DNA from: Octopus vulgaris
Taxonomy: Eukaryota
DNA: 64,000 bases
Direction: 5' to 3'
NCBI GenBank assembly: GCA_951406725.2
Contig: OX597827.1
Location: 77,562,001 to 77,626,000 of the forward strand
Shown: positions 550 through 58,640 of the stretch, piece after piece
How the letters are laid out: every line of letters begins with the position of its first letter
Numbering within the stretch: position 1 is the first letter of the stretch
Program-made: the position numbers and the translations under genes
Notes under the pieces: model-generated
What the model saw: the letters and a program-made list of their open reading frames with translations, nothing else
Databases searched by the model: none
Told to the model about the DNA's origin: nothing

Positions 550-709
550 CAAGTTCTGCTGTGTAAATTCATTAGCGTTCTCAGTTGCAAAGAGGTCTCA
601 TTTGCTCATGTCTATACATGTGGGTGTATATAGAGATATACATGTGTATATGCATGGGTGTGTGGCAGGGTGTATGTATATTTGCACACCTACACACTTG
701 TTGGTTAAG

Positions 710-711
710 TG

Positions 712-763
<52 letters not shown>

Positions 764-806
764 CATGTTACATACTTGCACACGTGTTTATATATACGTA
801 TATATA

Positions 807-837
<31 letters not shown>

Positions 838-1022
838 GCATGGGTGTGTGGGGTGTGCATGTTTTTATATTTATATCTATATATATATACACGCATACAC
901 GTTGGTATGTATACACACACATTCATTACCTGCAGTGTGTGTGTATATGTATGTGTATATATGTCTGTGTATGTATGTGTGTGGCTTTATGTATACACAC
1001 AGATGCATACGCACACACATAT
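710..1022. repeat. (TA)n/(TG)n compound microsatellite
   Basis: Directly visible. Confidence 0.9.
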
Positions 1023-2865
1023 CTACGTTATTGTTTCCATTTGCTGGAAAAAACGAAAAGGAAAGAAAGGAAGGAAAACCAGAAGAACGGAAAATGAAAC
1101 ATTGAACGGAAAAAGTGTCATGTTTCTTCCAGTATATTCTGAACCAGGAAAAAAAACAACAAAAACTGCAGACCAATGTTGGAGATAACTTTTGAGAAAA
1201 TATGGGTCGTTTTTCTTCCTTTTTTCAATCTTTAAAACTTTCTGCAGGAAAAGAATTTAAAAAAAAAGGTTTTTTTTTGTTTTAAATGCCAGTGGAGATG
1301 TCAGGAGTCAGATTTGAACCTGAAACATTTTGTATGTAAAAGGGCTCATATATGTGCTGCGTCCTATGAGTGTTGAGTGGAAGGGACACCAATAGAAAAG
1401 GCACATATTGATTGTAGTGAAAAAGGTGGCTGAATCCTGAGAAATATCATAAAAACAAGCATACAATACCAGTGTATACACACAGCACAATGTACGCGCG
1501 TGCGTGTGTGTATAGAAACTGCTGCTGCTGCTACTATTACAAGGACAATATCAAGGAAAATAATAATAATAATAATAATAATAATATACAGTATTCTGAT
1601 GCTATAGCAAAGAGAGGAATCTCGTCTTATTTCTTTTGGAGATGATCAAAAGGGAAGAAGATAAAGAAAAAAGAACTTTTTCAGTAACTACCTACAGTTT
1701 GTGTGTGGTGAGTGTGTGCACACATATATAATATATATATACAAATATATATATATATATTTATGCACACCAAATATCTCTATACAAGGTTGGCTTGCAC
1801 GGAACATTAGGTAGGGTTTCATGCCTTGTTAGACACTCACACACAACCATATATACATATGTATATATATATATATGTATCACAAGCACACACACACACC
1901 TATATAATATATAAATCTTTGGCAGACACAATCATATATATTATTACTACAAATATAAACATATGTAAATACACCATAATTTGTCAAATCAGATTTATTG
2001 TTTGGGGTTTTTTTTTTCTTTGTGTTTTTTTTAAAACAATTTGAACACAAAATCAGAAGAAAAAGATGTTACATTGACTGAAAAAATAGCAAAAAAATAT
2101 TGCTATATCAGTGGTAAAATATGGCTGCCTGTTGGTGGATTTTTAATGAAATGATGATTGGAGGTGGTGAGACGGAGAGAGAGAGAGAGAGCTGCTGCTT
2201 GTGGGGTGAGGGGAAACGAAAGAACATGGTGGTGGTTGACTGACAAACACATGGATATGGTTATTTTGGAAAAAAATACATAAAATGTATATTCTGGATA
2301 AGTCATGGGAAGTTCTATGAAAGTTGTTGAATTGTGTCGGAGAATGATACAAGGAGACACTGCGAAAGACGTGGATAGATAATGGATTCTTAGGAATATT
2401 GTGGAAGACGTAAAGGAACCTACCGATAGGTTTGTTTTGAGAGATATGTCACAGAAAAGCTGAAGACATTGTTAAAAGACACGAAGACATGCCAGATGGA
2501 AGGAAAAAGAAATCAGAAGTTGCCAACAAAACGGAAATGTATTGTGAAAGACAAAAGATGCGCCACACAGAATTAAAACTCAATCAAAGAACATGGAGGC
2601 ATTTTCGCAAAAGACTTTAATGAAGCCATTTAATCAATCGCTGTGGCAATCCCTGTGATGTGGTGGTGGTAATTCCTTAACAAATTGAGTCGATTTTACA
2701 ATTTCTTTATTTTTCATTGCTGGAATTGTTTTCATTTAACATTACTAATTCTTCTGGAAAAAGGCAAGAAGGCCACAACTCCGAGGAAGGAAATTTTCTC
2801 CGGTTTCATTTTTGTCTAACAGGCAATTGTTTATTTTCATTGTTTTTTTTTTTATGTTCTTTTTT

Positions 2866-3330
2866 TAAGGTGGCAAACTGATGGAATCATTGGCTTGCTG
2901 AAGAAAAATGCTTAGCAGTATTTTTACAGATTTCTTACATCCTAACTTCAAATTCTGTCAAAGTCGACTTTGCTTTTCATCCTTTTTGTGGTTGATCAAA
3001 TGAAGTCTCATTCACTGGAGTCAAGGAAATCGACTTGCTCCCTCCCCTCAAAATTCCTGGGCTTCACCAGAATTCCAAAACCTTTGTGTTATTATTACAG
3101 CAGCAAGGTAGCGGAATCGTTAGTGTGTTGATCAAAGTGCTTAGCAAGCATTTCTTTTGACTCACTATGTTCCGAGTTCAGATTCTGCTGAGGTCAACTT
3201 TGCCTTTCATCCTTTCGGGGTCGATAAAATAAGTACCAGTCGAGCACTGGGGTTGATGTAAGCAACTTCACCCCACCCATCCGAAATTGCTGGCCTTATG
3301 CCAAAATTTGAAACCATTATTATTATTATT
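2866..3330 (+). mobile_element. Two tandem tRNA-derived SINE copies (family A)
   Basis: B-box-like gagttcagattc, core gcctttcatcctttcggggtcgataaaataagtaccag, tail gccaaaatttgaaacc(att)n. Confidence 0.85.
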
Positions 3331-4034
3331 ATTATCAAATTCATCATCTGGAGGTCAGACTCAAAATACCACCACCAAACATTAATTATAAAAAGGAAAA
3401 AAATTGCAAAATCACGTCAAAATGAGAAAAAATGGTGTAAAATGCGATTTTGTGGCAAAGATAGCTGGAAGATATTTTACCAAAAAAAAAAGACAAAAAT
3501 CTTCGGAGAAATAATAAAAATGACAAAAGGAGTGAAAAAGTGGGTCAAATGAATTCTGAGTGTTTTTTTTTTTTTTTTCTTTTTTTGTAAGGACAAATTT
3601 TGCCCACTTGAAAACATCAAGGAAGGACGCTCATAAGACACAGACACTAAATTAAAGGGAGGTAATTTGATATCCAGCCCGTTTCACAAGGCGGATTAAC
3701 TCCCTTCCCTCTGTGCTACCTTTCTGGTAAATGTCTTTTTATGTCGTCGTCATTGAAATGATCCGTAACCCTTAATTTATTTTGTAATCTTGCTTAAAAA
3801 GGGGGCCGAAAGTAAATGAAACAAAAAAAAAAAAGGGAAGAAAGAAAAAGCAAACCAAATATGTTCGGCAGCTGGGTTGGTTAGCAATGGGGAGGGAGAG
3901 ACTGGTTGGACCGGGGTTATAACTAAACTGGGGGATCAATGTTGGAGGAATAAAAACAACCAAATAATTTCACTGTCGCCGATGTTGTCTTTCTAGTTTT
4001 TTTCTATTTATTATTATTATTATTTATTATTATT

Positions 4035-4410
4035 GGATCTTTTCGCTTTGACCGGCAGATTTAAAAAATAATTTCTTTGTAACTAAACACTTTTAAACTT
4101 CGTATACTGGTAGAATGTGTTACATAAAACATCTCTTTCTCTTGGCTTTCTTGAGAAAATTCTGTAGTTTGTAAGCTATTTCTTGTTAAATTCTTGTATT
4201 TCGGCAATTTCTTGTTCAACTTCTTGACAAACAACAGCAGTAATTGTATTCACCTCAATAGACGTCATTGATTGGTTAAAATTGCCGAAATACGAATAAT
4301 TAAACAAGAAATAGCTTACAAACTACAGTATTTTCTCAAGAACGCCAAGAGAAAAAGATGTTTTCTGTGACACATTCTACCAATATACGAAGTTCTAAAG
4401 TGCTTATTTA
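4035..4410. mobile_element. Palindromic MITE-like element
   Basis: About 125 bp inverted arms, 4084-4210 and 4278-4406, with few mismatches. Confidence 0.8.
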
Positions 4411-9878: not shown

Positions 9879-11312
9879 CCAGGATGAGTCAAAAGTTTTT
9901 TTCATATTCCAAGCTTTAATTAACAGCTTGAGCAAATTACAGGCTGAAAGCGATTATTCATCAAAATATGTCCCATCATATTCTATTGTCTGCTACCTTT
10001 GTTGTCCCAGAAGCTCAATTCCATTCTCATATCACTGGTTCAGTGGCAGAAAAACTCACTACAGTCGTTTTCAAGTTCCTCCAGATTGTTGAGCCTCTGT
10101 CCTTGAAGGAAATGAGCCCTGGCTTGGAAAAGGTGGTAATCGGATGGTGCAAAGTCTGGACTGAAAGCAGGGTGAGGGACGACTTCCAACCCCTCAAATT
10201 CCTCAAGTTTGTGCTTGGTCTCATTAGCAGTGTTGGCCCCAGCAAGGTAACAAGCTTTCAAACAATCGTATACTCACTACAGCTGTTGAGCATAAAGTTT
10301 AGTGTTCACAGCAGGGCCAGTGCAACACCCCATCTTCCTCAAAATTCCACCAAACACACATGACCTTCTGTTTAAGTTGCCCTTTTTTGACAACAGATTC
10401 TGAAACCTGGCCAGAATGAAACCACTGATTTCTCTTATTAGGGTTATGAAAGGAGATCCATTTTTCATCCACTGATACGGTCTCACATGGCTTGCCAGGT
10501 CTTCTCAAGCACAGCATATCTCCAAAGGACAAGTGACCGAGACCTTTGGAGATATGCTGTGCTTGAGAAGACCTGGCAAGCCAAGCGAGACCGTAGGAGT
10601 GGCCTGTGCCAGTGCACCATGACCAGCCCATTTAAGAGTATCCTTCAATCATTGGGCAATAAACTGCACTTGCAAAGACCTGTCGAGGCAAGTGAAGTCA
10701 TTGTTGTGGCCAATGACAGTACCCACTGATTGGCACCCATGCGAGTGGCATGTAAAAAGCACCAATCAAACGTGATCATTGCCAGTGCCGCCTGACTGGC
10801 TCCCATGCTGGTGGCATGTAAAAAGCATCTGCTAAACTCTCAGAGTGGTTGGCATTAGGAAGGGCATCCAGCTGTAGAAACATTACCATATCAGACTGGA
10901 GCCTAGTGCAGCCATCTGGTTCGCCAGCCTTCAGTCAAACTGTCCAACCCATGCCAGCATGGAAAGCGGATGTTAAATGATGATGATGATGATGATGAGT
11001 TACAGTTCAACTCCAAAAACAAATATCTCAAGGATTTGCCGGTGGTTGTTTGCAAATGTCCACACATTGCTGAGCCTGGTCATTGGTCAGCGTCTGAAGA
11101 ACTTCCTGACAGAGTCTGTTTACAAGACTGAGCTTATGGAAGGGTTGGCTGATGGTGTTTTGTGAAAGATCAACTTCTGCCGATAATGTTAGGTGCTGGT
11201 GGTGTTTGGCTGTTGTTTAAGCAAAGCCTCCTCTTCAACAACAGAATGTCACCCTAAATTTGGTTTATCTTTAAGGCTGGTGTTGCCTTCCTTAAAATGC
11301 CTAAACCAGTTT
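9875..11312 (-). mobile_element. Fossil mariner transposon interrupted by an RTE insertion
   Basis: WFRHFKEGNTSLKDKP, VDEKW, KVMCVWWN and HPAFSPDFAPSDYHLF motifs; TIR-like tataccaggatgagtcaaaag at 9875. Confidence 0.9.
10476..10998 (+). mobile_element. 5'-truncated RTE LINE nested in the mariner, with fold-back 5' end
   Basis: SDRDLWRYAV C-terminus, RTE 3' UTR, (GAT)n tail; 53 bp inverted repeat at the 5' junction. Confidence 0.85.
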
Positions 11313-22554: not shown

Positions 22555-23000
22555 TTATTGTAAAAGAGTCTGGATGTAGCGGACAGCCTCTTGGCTCTCG
22601 CACTTTCTTTGTCCGACGCCGTATGTCGTGGTAGCCGGTTGGTTGGACCAACCAGAATTCCATGCTGTGGTAACGGGGAAGCTGCGCTTCCAGTAGTTGT
22701 TGTCAGGTCTCTGTGGAAGTTGATGGGGAGATGTGGAGTTCATTGATGCTGACGCTACGGTGGCTGGTTGCTGCCGAATGGAAGCATGTTGGGACATCAT
22801 CTGGTGAGAACAGGCTGCGGGGGACATTGATGACGACGACGATGACGATTTGCGGAGTCCTGCTTGATGTTGTGACATCATTTGACACGATGAAGATGGG
22901 GAAGACGATGGCGTGGACTGCTGTTGATGATGATGGTGATGCTGAGCCTGTTGTTGTTGTTGTTGCTGCTGCTGTTGCTGTGGTGGTGGTGGTGGTGGAG

Positions 23001-23036
<36 letters not shown>

Positions 23037-24612
23037 TCCTTGGAGGTGGCGGTGGTGGAGCTGCATGCTGTGATGATGAAGACTGCGTCATCTGATGAGA
23101 GCAAGAATTGGAAGCTAGGGTCCCCGGGGTAACGACAGTGGGAGACGGTGACGTAGCCGAGTGCTGTGGCTGCTGTTTCCTCATTGACGATGTATGATGG
23201 GTTGATGCTGTCCCAGATGAGGTCGATGCTGAACTAGAGCTGGCTGCCATCTGGTGGTGGGTCGTAGTACCACCAGCACCACCACCACTGGACACCAGGG
23301 CTGGCGTTTGCTGCTTGCTTCCATGGCCATCAGCGGTCATTTGAGAGTCCGAAGGGCTGCTGTTGGTGTGATGGTTTTGGTGCTGACTATGATTATGGAC
23401 ATGATGATGATGATGGTTATGGCCCATGGACTGAGAGAATTCTTCCCCGACGTGAATGCGACTGTGCTGCTTCAGGTGGGTCTTCTGGGAGAAGGTTTTC
23501 AGACAAATTGTACACTGGAAAGGTTTCTCGCCAGTGTGAGTCCGTCTGTGCTTGTTTAAATGGTCCTTCTGGGCAAAAGACTTATTGCAAATGGGACACT
23601 GGTGTGGCTTCTCGCCACTGTGTGTGTGCTTGTGGGTATTCAGGTGGGATTTTTGCGCAAAACTTTTCCCACAAAGGTTACACGTGAACGGTTTCTCCCC
23701 GGTGTGGGTTCTTTGGTGGTTCTCAAGACGGTCTCTCTGTGGGAAGACTTTGCTGCAAAACGGACAAGGGAAGTGTTTGCCAGTTTCAGGGGCAAGTTGG
23801 TGCCTGAGTAGGTAGGCCTTCAAAGTAAAACCCTTGCGACATACATCACATTTAAAGGGCTTATCTCGAGCTTCATTTCCTCTGTTAATCGGGAATGCTT
23901 TGGAGTTAAAGTGTCCGCTGTTCTGGAACGACACATTGCTTCCGTGAAAATGGCCGTGACTGTGGTTGTGATTGTGGTTGTGGCCATGGTTATGGGCGTG
24001 GTTGTGGGCGTGGCCGTGGTTGTGAGAGTGGGTGTGGCCATGATTATGACTGTGGTTGTGACTATGGGTGTGACCATGATTGTGGGAGTGGTTATGAAAC
24101 TGCTTTCGAGGAACCATCATTGCCATGTTGGTAGAATGGTTGTGGAGGTTCTTGTGTTTCACACGGTTGGCTGGTTTAATTCCCTGGTGAACCATTTTGT
24201 GTGTGTTCAGGTGAGACTTCTGTGAGAAGGACTTGGAGCAAATGTCACAGGTGAACGGCTTCTCACCTGTGTGGGTCCTCTCGTGTTTCTCTAACCTGTC
24301 TCGCTGCGGAAACACTTTGCTGCAGAAGTTACAATTGAAATGCTTGCCAGCTTCTGGGGCCATCTGGTGCCGCTGGAGGTAGGCTTTTAGTGTGAAACCT
24401 TTACGACAGATATCACATTTGAATGGCTTGTCCCGGGCTTCGTTACCTTTCGGTTTAAACATGAACGAGCCATTGTTGTTGTTGTGATGGTGATGGTGGT
24501 GGTGATGATGGTGGTGGTGGTGGCCATTCGGTGGTGAAAAAGACTGAGAGTGATTATGGCCCCCACCTCCACAATTCTCAAAGCAGTTATCATTGGACTG
24601 GACCGAATACAT
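22555..24612 (-). CDS. C2H2 zinc-finger protein, 685 aa, 8 fingers (3+5; two lack the last His), poly-His/HxH tracts, C-terminal Ser/Gln/Pro low-complexity region
   Basis: Long ATG-initiated ORF with repeated CxxC-x12-HxxxH motifs and TGEKP linkers; pyrimidine tract plus AG acceptor at about 24641-24680, 28 nt upstream of the ATG. Confidence 0.95.
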
Positions 24613-25809
24613 TTCGGTGTTGGCTGAATTCTTTCTAAATCTAAAATTTGGAGAAAATAGAAAACGAACAGAAGAAAAAGAAAGTTCAAACTTGCTGTTA
24701 TCTTCTCATTGGTAAACAATGTTCGGTCAGGGTTTTGTCCCAAGATTTCCCTTTTAACACAACACAAATGAAATCATTCTTGTGTTTGTGTCCTCACTTC
24801 ACACAATACAGGACATCTTTAGGTTTTTGTACGGATTAATTTCTGCGGCCACCCACAACCACAGATGGCGGAATCTTAGATTTCTGTCGGTTCATATTGG
24901 AATTTGGACAACAGAATGTCGTGCACGAGAGGAAAATAAAAAATCCGAGAATTATCCCAATAAAAGTAATGTATGTCTTCAGAAACTTTGGTTGTCTGTC
25001 TGTGCGTCTGGCAGCTTCTTGTTAAATATTATATAAATATGGAGGCACAGCAATATTTTTGAAACACAGAAAAACACATCTAAAAAAAGGGTTTAAAATC
25101 TTTGAAAAGTTCCAAATGAGTTTAGATACTCAGCTGCAATATTATTCTGCTTCGATGGAAGTTGGGGGTCAAATGACGACAACAGCCAAGACCTGGGGGG
25201 GAGAAAAAAAAAAGAAGAAAATTGGTTTTGATTTCATATTTATTCCATTTAATACAGAAAAACAAAAGAATAATAATTATACCAAGCCACCTGAGACCAC
25301 CCCTACTTTTGTAACCTCAGCCCTTTTGAGAATAACCCTAGCTCTTTGACACTAAATCATCTGAGACCACCCGAGTTCTATGAGACCAACCTACCTGAGA
25401 TTTCACCCCTTTGGTGCCAATCTACCTGAGACTGCCCCTGGTTCTGAGATATAAACTTTCTGATTTAAACTTCCATGCTATGCGTCAAACAACAGTTTAA
25501 TAAACGACAAGGATTTTACTAAATTCTTCCCTATTTTCAAAACTAATTGAAACAAAGGCAGTGGTATTTCAACCAAGATATGGTAACAAAAGGGTTAAAG
25601 TGATCTAAACTAAAACCTTCCATTCAAAATTTCATGTTAACTGATGTTCCAAGCATCCGATTCATAATGACAAAAATATTTCATTAAATTTCGTTATATT
25701 TGTAACCAAGTCAAAGAAAGGCAGAGTATTTCAACAGAAACAATGGTGATGAAAGGGTTCAAGCGATCCAAATACATTAACAAAAGTGTTAAAGCGTAGA
25801 AAATCTGTT

Positions 25810-33113: not shown

Positions 33114-33406
33114 CGCAATGGCCTGGTGGTTAGGGCAGCGGACTCACAGTCGGAGGATCGTGGTTTCGATTCCCAGACCAGGCGTTGAGTGTGTTTATTG
33201 AGCAAAAACACCTAAAGCCCCATGAGGCTCCGGCAGGGGGGGGCAACCCCTGTTGTACTCTTTCACCGCAACTTTCTCTCACACTTTCTTCCTGTTTCTT
33301 GAGTAACGCTGCATTGGACTGGTGTCCCGTCCAGCTAGGGAGGAACACATACGCCACAGAAACTGGTAAACCGTTAGGCTTGAAAAGGGCAACATATTTT
33401 ACGTTT
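33114..33406 (+). mobile_element. SINE with family D head and V-domain-like 3' half; 12 bp TSD
   Basis: atcatgccattc at 33102-33113 and 33407-33418. Confidence 0.85.
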
Positions 33407-33914
33407 ATCATGCCATTCATGTTGGTCCCCTCCATCTCCTCAGAGGGTCTCAACATCTTGAGGTCAGTCTTCACTTTATTCCTCATCTTCCCAGATCCAC
33501 CTCTTCTACAGGTTCCTTCCATGTTTAATGATTAGCACTTCTTTATACAGCTGTCCTTACCCAGCTGCATCACATCACTGTACCAGCACAGTCTTCTTGC
33601 CTGCACTCCACATCTAATGCCTCTTATACCCAATTTTTCTCTAAGCACGTCTGTTCTTTGTCATGCTTTCACACTAACATTGCACTCCAGTAAAGCATAC
33701 TTGTTTCATTTCTTTCAAGTCTTCACATGTCCTCTGCATTCACAACCCGAATTTCACAGTCATGTTGCATTGCTGTTCCTACACAGTTACCATGCAATCT
33801 GCCTTTCATTCTGAGAGAGAGAGGCCTGTTACCAACAGAGGTGAAAGTTCTCTGTGACATGGTGGTCCCTAAGGAAGCTAGAACTAGACAGATGACTTGG
33901 GAAAGCTGTGCAAG

Positions 33915-35085
33915 CATGTAAAAGGGAGCAGTTAGTAAAGGGACAGTTAACTGTGAGTTCAGTAATGAATTTAGAGTATAGGTAGGCATTCACCAGGGCT
34001 CAGTTCTCAGTCCTCTCCTATTCATCATAGTCCTCCAGACCAGAACAGAAGAATTTAAGACCAGCTGCCCCAGGGAACTATCATATGCTGATGATTTTGC
34101 TCTCATGGTAGAATCTGTAACAGTATTAGATAATAAATTCTGGGTGTGGAAGCAAAACCTGGAATCAAAAGGCCTTAAAGTTAACATAGCAAAGCCCAAA
34201 GATCTAGTAAGCAGGATTCTACCCACTTCAGGTAAATGGCCCTACTCAATATGTAGGAAGGGTGAAGGCAGGTCTTCCATTTGGTGTGCCCAGTGCAAGC
34301 TATAGAATCAAAAGAAGGTTAAGTAAGAAAGTAGTGTATGTGGAAGATTCACAGAAGCAGTGAACACTAAGGAGTCATGGCAAATAGATTTTCTTGAATG
34401 CCATGGAAGCTTCCTGGAGGTGGCAGATAGCTTTCTGTTACTTAAATGACCTAATTAGCAGTGGTGGAGGATGATCCAACAGGATAGTTGCAAGAGTAAG
34501 AACAGGATGGAGAAGGTTCAGAGAGTTATTACCTCTGTTCTCTTTCTCTGAATGAAAGACATTGTATTATGCTTGTATGGAATGGAAGCACTCCGTCAGT
34601 TACAACGACGAGGGTTCCGGTTGATCCGAATCAACGGAACAGCCTGCTCGTGAAATTAACGTGTAAGTGGCTGAGCACTCCACAGACACGTAGTTCTCGG
34701 GGATATTCAGCGTGACACAGAGAGTGACAAGGCCGGCCCTTTGAAATACAGGTACAACAGAAACAGGAAGTAAGAGTGAGAGAAAGTTGTGGTGAAAGAG
34801 TACAGCAGGGATCACCACCATCCCCTGCCGGAGCCTCGTGGAGCCTTAGGTGTTTTCGCTCAATAAACACTCACAATGCCTGGTCTGGGAATCGAAACCG
34901 CGAGTCCGCTGCCCTAACCACTGGGCCATTGCGCCTCCACTACGATGCTTGTATATGAAGAGCAATGCTACATATTAGAGAGGAATGAAACTAGTATGCT
35001 CTGTTTGATGTGCAATGTCAGTGTGCATTGATGCCAAAGCACTGATGTACTGACCAAGATCTTATGCATCAGAAGGAATCAAGGT
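33915..35085 (+). mobile_element. RTE LINE reverse transcriptase remnant interrupted by a SINE
   Basis: GIHQGSVLSPLLF, YADDFAL, GLKVNIAK and CRKG..C..C read in plus-strand frames. Confidence 0.85.
34588..34938 (-). mobile_element. Full-length SINE family D
   Basis: Reverse complement of 5194-5565; atgcttgtat repeated on both sides. Confidence 0.9.
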
Positions 35086-35418
35086 ATTCCTATTTCTTGA
35101 GTAACGCTGCGATGGACTGGTGTCGCGTCCAGCTGGGGGGAACACATATGCCACAGAAACCAGGAAACCGGGCCCGTGAGCCTGGCTATGCTTGAAAAGG
35201 GCGACATATTTTACATTTATCATGCCATATATTATTATTACCATTATTCAGGTCACTGGAATCAAACTCGGAATCTTGGGGTTAGTAGCCTGCGCTCTTA
35301 ACCACTACACCGTTCGATTCCAGGCAGTGACCTGATTAATAATAATGATAATAATAACAACAACAACAACATCAAAAGGTACCTTAGGAATAAGAACCCA
35401 GGTTCAAAATTTCCTCAA

Positions 35419-35464
35419 GACACCTGATGAAGGCTGGAGGATATATCAGCAGAAACGTTGTGTT
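35419..35464 (+). ncRNA. Type I minimal (Penelope-type) hammerhead ribozyme motif
   Basis: gacac-CTGATGA-ag-gctg(10 nt loop)cagc-a-GAAA-CGTT-gtgtt: stem I, stem II, intact core and palindromic ACGT stem III; the pair closing stem II is mismatched. Confidence 0.65.
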
Positions 35465-35644
35465 AACAACCAACAAGATGTGGACAATTATCTGTCAAAT
35501 GTAAATAATGTAAATAATTCCTCATCGCTGAAATATCGAACTGATCTCTTTCCCTTCACTAAGCAACAAATTAATATATTTCTTGTGCACTTCGTCATTT
35601 TTTTTTCCTGTTTTTTGTTTGTTTATTTGAATCATATATATATA

Positions 35645-48951: not shown

Positions 48952-51291
48952 CTACAGCTGCCACAGGTATGTGCTCATTGGTGGAAACTCTTCAATTGTT
49001 TTATTGTTGGAATTAACAGACACTTTGTGAGGTTTGCTGCTCGGTTGGGGTCCGTTGTGAGTCTTCTTGTGTCTCTGCAGGGTATCCCCTCGTGTGAACT
49101 GTTTCGGGCACATATCACAATGGTAGGCTTTCTCTCCGCTGTGTGTAATCTTGTGCAATCGCAGGTATTGTCTTTGAGCAAAAGACTTGAAGCATATCTC
49201 ACACTGGTACGGTTTCTCACCAGTGTGGGTTCGACAATGGATCTTCAAAGAGTTTTTCTGTGCAAACTGCTTCAGGCAGAAGTCACATTGAAATGGCTTT
49301 TCCCCAGTGTGGGTCCGTTTATGTAATCTTAGATAGTGTTTGTGGGCAAAGTTCTTGAGGCAGACGTCACACTGGAATGGTTTTTCTCCTGTGTGGGTTC
49401 GCTTGTGTATCTGTAATGTGTTTCTCTGAGCAAACTGTTTAAAACAAACTTCACATTGGAACGGTTTCTCTCCCGTGTGAGACCTCTGATGGACATGAAG
49501 ATAATGTCTCTGCGCAAACATCTTTAAGCAAATATCGCATTGATACTGACGCTTCGGTGCATGAGTGCGACGGTGAACTCGCAACTTATCGCTCTGGGCG
49601 AACCTCTTGTCACAAATCTCACAATGGAACGGTTTTTCCCCCGTGTGAGTCCTCCGGTGAATTTGAAGGGTCGTTTTGCGAGCAAATTTCTGGATGCAAA
49701 AGTCACACTGGAATGGTTTCTCTCCCGTGTGGGTTCTTCGGTGAATGATTAAGTAATGTTTTTGAGTGAACTTCTTCAAACAAATGTCACAGTGCATCAG
49801 TTTTTCACCGGTGTGCAGTCGTCGATGGATCTGTAGGTAATACCTTTGTGCAAAATGCTTCAGACAAAATTCGCATTGGTGCCGTTTCTTCAAAATGTGT
49901 GTTTTCTGATGAATCTGAAGCTTTATTCGCTGTGAAAATCTCTCCTGACAGACTTCACACTGGAATGGCATCTCTCCAGTATGGGTGCGTCGATGGATCT
50001 GAAGCGTGTCTCTTCGAGCAAATTTTTGGATACAGAAATCACATTGGAATGGTTTCTCCCCAGTATGAGTCCTCTTATGAATTTCAAGATAATTCCTCGT
50101 ACCGAAATACTTCATGCATACATCGCATTGAAATAGTTTATCTGGTGTAAACTGCTTTTTCGCCATTTGAGAATTCTCTTGCATAGGAACTTGGTAGCTG
50201 TTTCCAAGAACTTTGGGGGATTGGACAAGACCCTCCATATGGTTTTTCTTATGTCTTTTCATAACATCTTTGCGAGAGAACTGTTTGTTGCAGATATCGC
50301 ATTGGAACGGTTTCTCTCCTGTGTGTTTCCTTCGGTGCATGTGCATCAAATATTCCTGAGCAAACTTCTTGCCACAGTAATCGCAGAAGAGCTGCCTCAA
50401 TACTTGTGGTTTGGGTTGGCTTGGCGACAATTTGTTCGGGCCATATTGTTTTTGAGACACATCACCATGGAATGATTTATCAATACTAGAAGTGGAGCTC
50501 TTTTGAGAAGAACTCTCCTTAGATGATTGTCCGCCCTCCAAGCTTGACTGCATTCTGTCAGTAGTTGGTAGGTAACATGGTTGAGAATACTGGCTGCTGT
50601 ACATATTGTTACCAGGAAACACTGTCTGACCAATATAGGGCAGTCGCTGGCTCTCTATAGTCGACTCATGAGAGAACTGGCTCCCAGACAGGTCGCTGTT
50701 GCTATTGTTGTCTGGTTTGTCAACTGGTGAGGCTATTCTCTCCTTCTCCAAGTTATGTCTGTGGGAAGAGATCTGTTTACTGGAGATGCTGTTGTGAATG
50801 TTTTTCTCTGGAACATGTGACATCCTTGGAGTCTCCTGACAACTTCCATGAGACATATGCTTGCCGGAGCTATGGGAAGACTTCTCAGCCACATGAGAGA
50901 TCCTGTGTGTGTCATGGGAGTACTGCTTCCCAGAGTCACTGCTGCTATTGTGGATAGACTTCTCACCGGGTTCTAACATTCTTTGAGAGCTGTGTGAATG
51001 AGAAGAACTATGTCGATGGTGAATGTGCTTCCCAGAACTGTTGCTATGGTGATGGCTGGATTTCTCAGCAATCGGCGTCATCCTTTGCTGTGAGTGAGAA
51101 CTCTGTGAGCTATGAATAGGAAATTGTTTGCCCCCTAACGGAGCCATCCTTTGAGTATCAAGAGCATGTTCCTGGCCGAAATGCTTGCCAGAAAAGTCGC
51201 TAAGGGTTGGCATTCTTGGTGTGGGAAGTCTGTGATGGAATGGCATGCCATACATTTCACCATAGATTGGAATCCCGGCAGACCTCTCCAT
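48952..51291 (-). CDS. C2H2 zinc-finger protein, about 779 aa, 15 fingers (2+13), Ser/His-rich repetitive N-terminus
   Basis: 15 canonical fingers, mostly TGEKP linkers. The ORF-track start at 51315 is TTG; the first in-frame ATG is at 51291 in good context (ATCATGG). Acceptor ttttcactgtttcAG at 51392-51393. Confidence 0.95.
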   Translation of the reverse strand: MERSAGIPIYGEMYGMPFHHRLPTPRMPTLSDFSGKHFGQEHALDTQRMAPLGGKQFPIHSSQSSHSQQRMTPIAEKSSHHHSNSSGKHIHHRHSSSHSHSSQRMLEPGEKSIHNSSSDSGKQYSHDTHRISHVAEKSSHSSGKHMSHGSCQETPRMSHVPEKNIHNSISSKQISSHRHNLEKERIASPVDKPDNNSNSDLSGSQFSHESTIESQRLPYIGQTVFPGNNMYSSQYSQPCYLPTTDRMQSSLEGGQSSKESSSQKSSTSSIDKSFHGDVSQKQYGPNKLSPSQPKPQVLRQLFCDYCGKKFAQEYLMHMHRRKHTGEKPFQCDICNKQFSRKDVMKRHKKNHMEGLVQSPKVLGNSYQVPMQENSQMAKKQFTPDKLFQCDVCMKYFGTRNYLEIHKRTHTGEKPFQCDFCIQKFARRDTLQIHRRTHTGEMPFQCEVCQERFSQRIKLQIHQKTHILKKRHQCEFCLKHFAQRYYLQIHRRLHTGEKLMHCDICLKKFTQKHYLIIHRRTHTGEKPFQCDFCIQKFARKTTLQIHRRTHTGEKPFHCEICDKRFAQSDKLRVHRRTHAPKRQYQCDICLKMFAQRHYLHVHQRSHTGEKPFQCEVCFKQFAQRNTLQIHKRTHTGEKPFQCDVCLKNFAHKHYLRLHKRTHTGEKPFQCDFCLKQFAQKNSLKIHCRTHTGEKPYQCEICFKSFAQRQYLRLHKITHSGEKAYHCDMCPKQFTRGDTLQRHKKTHNGPQPSSKPHKVSVNSNNKTIEEFPPMSTYLWQL

Positions 51292-51632
51292 GATGATAAT
51301 GAAAGCATGAAACAAGAACTAGTAGAGTCTTAACGAATGTGGCTCGGACCGACTGATTGTCTTCTCAACAAAACAGGTCACACAGTACACTCTGAAACAG
51401 TGAAAAGAAAACAAAAATAAATACTATAGATATATATATATATACATGTAAAGATGTGTATATTTAATATATAAGTGCAAAAATGGCTATCAAATACAGA
51501 AGTGGTTTCTTACACTGGATTATACACAGGATTCTTGCAGCAGAGGAACCAGAAAAACTATTCACATTTTAGAGGAGGGGAGTTGGAAAAGTGCTAGGGT
51601 GTATAGGTGTGTGAGGTGTGAGTGTGTGTGTT

Positions 51633-58104: not shown

Positions 58105-58431
58105 AATACTTTACTCTTTTACTTGTTTCAGTCGTTTGACTGTGGCCATGCTGGAGCACCGCATTTAGTCGAACAAATCGACCTCAGAACTCATATTTTA
58201 TTCTATTGGTCTCTTTTGCCAAACCGCTAACTTATGGGGATGTAAACATACCAGCATTGGTTGTCAAGCATTAGTGGGGGGACAAACACAGACACATAAT
58301 AATAATAATAATAATAATAATATGACAACAAAAGAATGAATGAGACCTCGATATTATGTAAACTCTGAAACTGAGTTTTATTATGACAACCAACTAATTG
58401 TCACATATTTTAAAAGAAGCCGATCATATAT

Positions 58432-58486
<55 letters not shown>

Positions 58487-58640
58487 CGGCTTCTTTCAGT
58501 TTCTGTCTACCAAATCCACTCACACGGCTTTGGTCAGCCCAAGGCTATAGTAGAAGACACTTGCCTAAGGTGCCACACAGTGGGACTGAACCCAGAACCC
58601 TGAGATTGGTAAGCAAGCTACTTACCACACAGCCACCCCT
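58105..58640 (-). mobile_element. SINE family B (tail 58105-58295, head 58485-58640) split at its internal microsatellite
   Basis: Reverse complement of the 38338-38763 consensus. Confidence 0.8.

Follow-up and report, generated by a model that had tools for sequence, protein, structure and literature searches.

Background

By the usual definition a SINE is a parasite of a LINE. Helenus and Ajax are described as tRNA-headed non-autonomous LTR elements (PMC10886601). In schistosomes, Sm-alpha (derived from tRNA-Gln) and Sj-alpha are reported as tRNA-derived, apparently Pol III-transcribed elements which carry a type I hammerhead; Sm-alpha is non-coding and exceeds 10,000 copies, and both often stand in tandem and are processed by their ribozyme (PMC6765202, PMC2770079, PMC8490949). 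Animal non-LTR retrozymes consist of tandem units with circular RNA, according to the accounts available, and have been proposed to derive from Penelope-like elements (PLEs) (PMC7229834; bioRxiv 10.64898/2026.07.22.740005). A tRNA-derived head was not found for them in the available portion of the former paper, and the word 'tRNA' occurs zero times in the latter.

PLE insertions are described as truncated at the 5' end and as lying next to an inverted copy that is likewise truncated; they may carry a tail of 30-40 bp and favour microsatellites (PMC8557442). The Poseidon protein of Anolis is reported to cut at ATT, to extend both strands and to be, by prediction, a dimer; it starts at two internal sites, which define the tail. 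The Poseidon hammerhead cuts only when the protein is present, insertion in vitro proceeds without the ribozyme, and uncut RNA was the dominant substrate of the reconstituted PLE (PMC11167929). For minimal hammerheads, no cleavage is reported for single copies and little for dimers (PMC4209133). Non-autonomous PLEs are known as well, for example MRC1 of Chlamydomonas (PMC8557442; PMC6685494), and Chlamys elements are described as mostly lacking canonical hammerheads (PMC8557442).

Here we describe an element of Octopus vulgaris that combines a tRNA-derived head with (AAT)n, a minimal hammerhead and a PLE-type tail. No description of this family, or of any dispersed tRNA SINE with a PLE end, was found in the literature; Repbase, Dfam and SINEBase were outside the scope of this search, and the family may already be catalogued there. 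The word 'hammerhead' is absent from PMC8967140, and none was seen in the accessible part of PMC13282606 or in its supplement; the latter study reports 893 unclassified recently active SINE families, with a library on Zenodo.

Results

Genomic setting

The window, by which we mean the whole analysed stretch of 64,000 nt, is AT-rich animal DNA (GC 33-48%) with many microsatellites and short interspersed repeats. Among the 18 of its 122 listed reading frames that were scanned, C2H2 zinc-finger frames were found on the minus strand at 22555-24705 and 48952-51318. These are 716 and 788 codons long from stop to stop and probably belong to a zinc-finger gene array. The reading frame overlapping the element gave no Pfam match, and a coding gene was rejected as the identity of the element. 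The window copy lies between the two zinc-finger genes as a decayed remnant, and nothing points to a role for the host.

The element, 35230-35545, is the last member of a nest of repeats and directly adjoins the 3' part of a SINE at 35087-35228, which is homologous to 33289-33416. This left flank is the truncated 3' part of a SINE subfamily (33114-33416 and 35087-35228) that has its head and body in common with the tRNA SINE at 34579-34944, the 3' part being unlike. The tRNA SINE at 34579-34944, which has an exact 10-bp target duplication, interrupts a decayed LINE fragment (33472-35086, with RVT_1 at 33982-34305). On the right, the flank 35546-35609 reaches a summed depth of 600-4,200 in X1, one of the public contig sets introduced below, well above single copy; it is either a low-copy repeat or part of a longer subfamily of the element.

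Self-complementary stretches lie elsewhere in the window at 4080-4410 (about 330 bp, 80%), 10469-10602 (134 bp, 87%) and 58413-58496 (84 bp, 95%), the first of them with a MITE-like look. A second, unrelated minimal-hammerhead-like motif was read by eye on the minus strand at 32130-32000. Its stem II has four pairs and its stem I five, its core and palindrome are each decayed by one base, and about 90 nt and a (TA)n run follow; it is likely the truncated end of another Penelope-like family.

The tRNA-like head and the inverted arms

The original prediction had seen inverted arms around a minus-strand tRNA-like head with A and B boxes, then (AAT)n(AAC)n and a type I hammerhead with paired stems I and II, and each of these parts is borne out by the data given here. 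The arm 35245-35267 equals the reverse complement of 35312-35338 except for two mismatches and a 4-nt gap, and the arm region folds at a z of about -5, with none of 200 shuffles as good. The four letters absent behind 35255 occur in other copies (33 contigs in X1, 32 in X9 and 13 in X15) and make the arms match.

The inverted copy (copy 1, minus strand) comprises a tRNA-derived head at 35249-35311, recognised by its boxes, by alignment to SINE heads and by depth, and an (AAT)n tract at 35230-35248, evident from the sequence. Here the copy stops, with no hammerhead beyond, and a second hammerhead copy was not found in the window. In 128 X1 and 78 X9 contigs the loose ends that precede 35256 consist of (ATT)n. 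The head of copy 1 is without roughly the first 15-20 nt that are present in other copies, and at this head X1 has loose ends behind 35307/35308. Its Pol III A box (35302-35312, minus strand) has one mismatch, the first base having been lost at the junction; the missing T is supplied by the loose-end letters of other copies. The B box (35258-35267, minus strand) also has one mismatch in the window copy. The boxes are 34 nt apart, as they are in another of the SINE heads of the window; among 2000 shuffles of 35245-35338, 0.8% scored as well. The arm could be aligned to five SINE heads of the window with no gap of its own between the boxes, and an anticodon-loop-like heptamer (35282-35288, minus strand) falls at tRNA positions 32-38.

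The cloverleaf stems are mostly broken in the window copy, with two of five pairs each in the anticodon stem and the T stem. ARAGORN and Rfam made no tRNA call at the head; a control SINE head reached only 12.7 bits (E 2.6). A functional tRNA gene was rejected as the identity of the head, and so were the relaxed ARAGORN calls at thresholds of 70 or below, in which the arm hairpin is misread as an acceptor stem. A blastn search of phages gave five matches, by chance only.

The forward copy (copy 2, plus strand) begins abruptly at an intact B box, 35312-35321, which is likely a 5' truncation point. The 3' end of its head, 35312-35334, is the reverse complement of 35249-35267. It is followed by the (AAT)n(AAC)n tract, read directly from the sequence at 35335-35371, and by a linker between microsatellite and ribozyme at 35372-35418 which is common to the family.

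The hammerhead motif

The minimal type I hammerhead (35419-35464, plus strand) was identified by a descriptor match and fits the consensus in the supplement of PMC4209133. It is made up of the core 35424-35430, an extra A at 35431, stem II (35432-35436 with 35447-35451), GAAA at 35452-35455, the palindromic stem III ACGT at 35455-35458 and a stem I of five pairs (35419-35423 with 35460-35464); the cut site is predicted after 35459. Measured against the PLE consensus, the motif has CUGANGA, one extra base, stem II, GAAA, the palindrome, UH and a short stem I. The G10.1-C11.1 closing pair of stem II is present in the family majority, but not in the window copy, where four pairs are closed by a G-A mismatch. 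The mismatch had already been noted in the original prediction; according to the family letters it is a private decay of this copy, whose hammerhead is likely impaired.

The descriptor, which was composed after the motif had been seen, has a single match in the 64-kb window; in 300 block-shuffled windows it matched 0.033 times on average, or 0.01 times when stem III had to be palindromic. None of the Rfam hammerhead models matched the motif. The active fold is not the minimum-energy fold, either for the monomer (-8.6 vs -9.8 kcal/mol) or for the dimer form (-16.1 vs -26.6 kcal/mol).

An abundant family in public runs

Four of 24 public runs, X1, X9 and X15 (contig sets) and X22 (raw reads), were compared with 35030-35625 at 80% likeness; X1 may come from the source sample itself. 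Matching records number 25,816 in X1, 12,258 in X9 and 3,707 in X15, counts which include the neighbouring SINE; the 3,707 contigs of X15, a set only presumed to be RNA, were not counted as evidence of transcription. In X1 the summed depth reaches 3.1 million over the head, 3.0-4.0 million over the hammerhead and 1.5 million over the linker at 35390-35409; two low bins have about 26, and single pieces 40-74. This suggests 10^4-10^5 family copies, summed depth not being a copy number. The depths of arm and hammerhead are within about twofold of each other in X1, X9 and X15. X22 contributed only three reads from 1,934 million letters, all with the family majority letters, and no read on the neighbouring abundant SINE either. 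X22 therefore seems not to represent this genome, and the estimate of abundance rests on contigs.

At several sites the majority of the family differs from the window copy. A35451>C, with 73% (X1), 83% (X9) and 86% (X15) of the depth, restores the closing pair of stem II. In X1, A35264>G (78% of depth) gives a consensus B box, T35291>C (70%) adds an anticodon-stem pair below the heptamer, and T35481>A (89%) completes an 8-bp tail stem of 35477-35484 with 35519-35526. With the family letters both A and B boxes are exact, and in the core 35424-35430 no change of 10% or more is listed. These letters are majorities per site only and show decay of the window copy, not covariation. The family is short, non-coding and of high copy number and looks dispersed, with thousands of contigs and unlike flanks, and the contigs support placing the tRNA-derived head, with its Pol III boxes, and the Penelope-type minimal hammerhead in a single abundant family of non-coding repeats.

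Inverted junctions between copies

At least 14 distinct same-strand junctions join the arm to 14 different points at 35399-35498. In 13 of the 14 the exit from the arm lies at 35303-35311, so that it is the 5' end of the head, inverted, which is joined. Among the joints listed (15 of 86), nine are same-strand links between the arm and the hammerhead or tail, two connect opposite strands and four are deletions within ribozyme and tail. Of the 12 rows listed (of 81) that give the letters between the joined parts, 11 connect the arm with the ribozyme or tail; six junctions appear in both tables. The neighbouring SINE (35087-35216), which is similarly deep and served as an internal control, appears in no joint among the rows listed. 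The family therefore has variable 5' truncation with an adjacent inverted copy, as described for PLEs, with an atypical left outer end at the window locus.

At the 5' end of the head, a short palindrome (about 18 nt, 2-nt loop) is still shared by 435 X1 contigs, beyond which their sequences part (agreement 0.56-0.57). One junction, 35307-35493, which connects the inverted head to a ribozyme-less tail, has a depth of 1429, about 20 times that of other single joints. This joined form must itself have been multiplied.

The region 35331-35382 was masked in the read comparison, which removed nine joints and 26 loose ends there. For this reason, the direct link of head, (AAT)n and hammerhead is seen only at the window locus and in one contig, record 17 of X9, which spans 35312-35440 (B box, (AAT)n and hammerhead) with nine other letters, three gaps and a different upstream sequence. 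The link is also implied by the two opposite-strand joints, 35229-35475 and 35265-35420, which read head-sense into the ribozyme region.

The original prediction had taken the inverted arms for part of a cassette, in a copy that looked internally deleted. More probably the arms mark the place where two copies meet, and not a fixed cassette. An internal deletion is retained as one of two readings of the locus, of which a junction of two copies fits better.

Two 3' ends

Behind the hammerhead follows a PLE-type 3' segment (35465-35519, plus strand), with the main family end near 35518-35519. This end lies at the foot of the 8-bp stem, about 60 nt past the cut site; 166 X1 and 158 X9 contigs diverge at 35518 into unlike DNA (agreement 0.45 and 0.44). 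For the tail of the window copy itself the fold is not significant (z +0.86). A minority of copies, the window copy included, has an additional optional tail of about 25 nt (35520-35545, plus strand). Over this boundary the X1 depth drops from 2.07 million (35510-35529) to 0.17 million (35530-35549), and four of 24 listed pieces end at 35541-35543. The optional tail of the family resembles that of PLEs. Since copies extend 60-85 nt past the cut site, the template should have been uncut RNA.

A target-site duplication of 8 nt or more was not found at the locus. Neither a 3' end shared with a LINE nor an A-tail with target duplication was found; the 3' end consists of the hammerhead and a PLE-type tail.

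Searches for relatives elsewhere

An exact 21-nt hammerhead pattern had no match in viral and metagenome contigs. A generic (AAT)n-hammerhead pattern found 72 metagenome and 19 genome loci, many of them with minimal-hammerhead-like stems after (AAT)n. When the element was compared with all 91 loci by BLAST, only (AAT)n matched and none had the head of the window element; ARAGORN found no tRNA in the 60 of 91 loci scanned. An inverted pair of A and B boxes was present in five of 75 metagenome matches (three loci). These were rejected as relatives, the boxes belonging to unrelated SINEs next door, and the inverted SINE upstream is absent from the other members of the L003 family. Chance can thus place an inverted SINE next to a hammerhead, and this gives the junction counts and the SINE control their weight.

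Nine of the loci (L003, L005, L006, L012, L032, L040, L052, L061 and L063) form this single hammerhead family. Its members mostly have an inverted copy of the 3' tail directly upstream, the usual Penelope-type fold-back, in contrast to the window element. At two further loci (L053:437-564 and L059:801-928), which share one family with each other, two minimal hammerhead ends stand back to back, forming a near-perfect palindrome around a centre of (AAT)n and poly-A/T.

Discussion

The mobile unit and alternative explanations

We consider it probable that the mobile unit is about 320 nt long, consists of a tRNA-derived head, (AAT)n and a PLE end, and is mobilised by PLE proteins, the window locus being a decayed head-to-head pair of such units, one of which is likely 5'-truncated. 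The two ends, the inverted junctions and the retention of both sides of the cut site lead us to read the unit as likely PLE-inserted from uncut RNA. Against this reading count the blank searches for a partner PLE, the direct link of head, (AAT)n and hammerhead in two places only, the missing target-site duplication and the three reads of X22. Furthermore, the multiplied junction 35307-35493 is not explained by joining anew at each insertion, and ordinary PLE pairs, as at the L003-type loci, have 3' tails at both outer ends, whereas here the left end is (AAT)n.

The multiplied junction would be accommodated if, in line with the architecture of the original prediction, the whole palindrome, inverted and forward head together with (AAT)n, hammerhead and tail, were mobile as one RNA; copies like that of the window would have lost the middle through a jump of reverse transcriptase to the apex of the hairpin or through a deletion afterwards. 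In the loose ends of X1, X9 and X15 the apex letters indeed hardly vary, one row passes the apex into the forward head and then jumps to 35402, and the window locus retains a left arm without ribozyme. The 435 X1 contigs, however, diverge behind the apex, as expected for the 5' ends of single units, and no promoter is evident for an RNA starting left of the inverted arm; we regard a mobile palindrome as unlikely. Rather unlikely, too, is a meeting of two independent families, namely a short tRNA SINE that is mobilised by LINEs and has (AAT)n as its tail, and ordinary truncated PLE ends, for which (AAT)n is the target, so that they often come to lie next to such a SINE. It can draw on the 72 unrelated loci with (AAT)n just upstream of minimal hammerheads, in a search whose pattern required (AAT)n, and on the unrelated inverted tRNA-SINEs upstream of five of 75 matches (three independent loci), apparently there by chance. 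With some 50,000 copies of each family and an assumed genome of 2.7 Gb, about ten chance abutments are expected by our estimate. Yet it is the 5' end of the head that enters the junctions and not the (AAT)n tail behind it, all 14 run in a single orientation, and the similarly deep neighbouring SINE takes part in no junction among the rows listed.

The original prediction had further called the element a retrozyme and ribozyme-processed. In the strict sense this would mean tandem units that are cut at their hammerheads, circularised and reinserted, with a tRNA-like promoter as in Sm-alpha. A hammerhead next to a tRNA-derived Pol III head would agree with it, and a unit of about 320 nt is inside the 170-400 nt range of animal retrozymes. 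But there is no tandem copy in the window and no tail-to-head joint among the joints listed (15 of 86), the flanks behind 35518 are unlike between copies, the ends run 60-85 nt past the cut site instead of stopping there, and the hammerhead is of the minimal PLE type. Neither term is thus supported, and a strict retrozyme appears very improbable. Least credible of all is a miniature DNA transposon (MITE) with tRNA-derived terminal inverted repeats and a PLE end inserted alongside: the arms are inverted and bordered by (ATT)n and (AAT)n, but the junctions start within the left arm and bypass the right one on the way into the hammerhead or tail, and there is no target duplication. The remaining part of the original prediction, mobilisation by Penelope, is the best inference from the two ends, the inverted junctions and the PLE-consensus hammerhead. 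Since defining features of a retrozyme and of a classical LINE-dependent SINE were looked for and not found, we class the element as neither of them; its behaviour is that of a non-autonomous PLE derivative headed like a SINE.

A possible mechanism

In such a PLE-mobilised unit, some 320 nt long, the Pol III transcript would begin about 15 nt before the A box and would take in the (AAT)n tract, the hammerhead and the tail. The stretch 35312-35597 has no run of four T, but the same holds for 29% of the 234-mers of the window. A PLE protein, a reverse transcriptase-endonuclease, may then bind the region of hammerhead and tail and nick AT-rich DNA on both strands, and reverse transcription would begin at either of two sites within the uncut RNA, which would account for the two 3' ends. 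With both strands extended, two cDNAs joined head to head would result, one reaching the 5' end of the RNA and the other stopping early; at the window locus the plus copy would have stopped at the B box. The (AAT)n end of the left copy could have come about by priming on (AAU)n by an ATT target end, or by a later deletion. The hammerhead itself is likely a PLE signal carried along, which would cut weakly, and only as a dimer or with protein. As to the putative partner, no PLE protein was detected among the 18 window frames scanned, and two protein searches with frames over the ribozyme were blank, both being weak tests.

Taking these steps together, the element may be a true tRNA SINE with a PLE as partner, a third route after the LINE-driven SINEs and the LTR-driven Helenus and Ajax. 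We offer this joint reading, including the origin, the priming of two strands and the fold-back, as a tentative one that may well fail in one of its parts. The family would then be among the major short repeats of the genome, with tens of thousands of copies, and would owe its origin to the insertion of a PLE end into a tRNA pseudogene, within its (AAT)n tail. A dimeric PLE protein would prime both target strands, using the tail stem-loop and (AAU)n, and a short hairpin at the 5' end of the RNA would let the cDNA fold back. Such a fold-back, if it takes place, would explain the constant apex as well as the head-to-head pairs.

Comparison with known elements and implications

The combination of a SINE with a hammerhead, which the original prediction had proposed as a hybrid, is not a new idea, being already known from Sm-alpha and Sj-alpha. 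Compared by description, Sm-alpha shares with the octopus family the tRNA-derived head, the type I hammerhead, the high copy number and the lack of coding capacity. In Sm-alpha, however, the ribozyme is reported to free monomers in which the promoter ends up 3', whereas the octopus family looks dispersed, has its head at the 5' side, ends 60-85 nt past the cut site and has two 3' ends and inverted junctions. With animal retrozymes, as far as these are described, it has in common that it is short and non-coding, carries a type I hammerhead and is proposed to be mobilised by PLEs.

The likeness to the pseudo-LTR ends of endonuclease-bearing PLEs that carry minimal hammerheads, as set out in PMC4209133, PMC8557442 and PMC11167929, extends to the extra base after the core, the palindromic stem III, the short stem I, the optional tail, 5' truncation, an inverted partner and AT-rich microsatellites. 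Unlike PLEs, the octopus element has no reading frame, and a tRNA-derived Pol III head replaces the PLE sequence; its inverted partner is head plus (AAT)n instead of a 3' tail, and its optional tail has about 25 nt instead of the 30-40 reported. MRC1 is likewise non-coding with PLE-type ends, and no tRNA-derived head is mentioned for it in the available text of PMC8557442. With tRNA SINEs and with Helenus and Ajax, as described, the octopus element shares A and B boxes at tRNA spacing as a putative internal promoter, and a probable life as parasite of an autonomous retroelement. The source of the 3' end differs: LINEs for classical SINEs, LTR elements for Helenus and Ajax, and a PLE-type ribozyme with its tail for the octopus element.

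Repeat libraries probably divide a family of this kind among 'SINE', 'Penelope' and 'unknown'. If the proposed reading is true, it would provide a minimal natural substrate of about 320 nt with thousands of dated insertions, which would bear on the role of the PLE hammerhead and on the way in which inverted PLE insertions are formed. An abundant Pol III SINE with a Penelope-like end would, moreover, widen the definition of what a SINE is.
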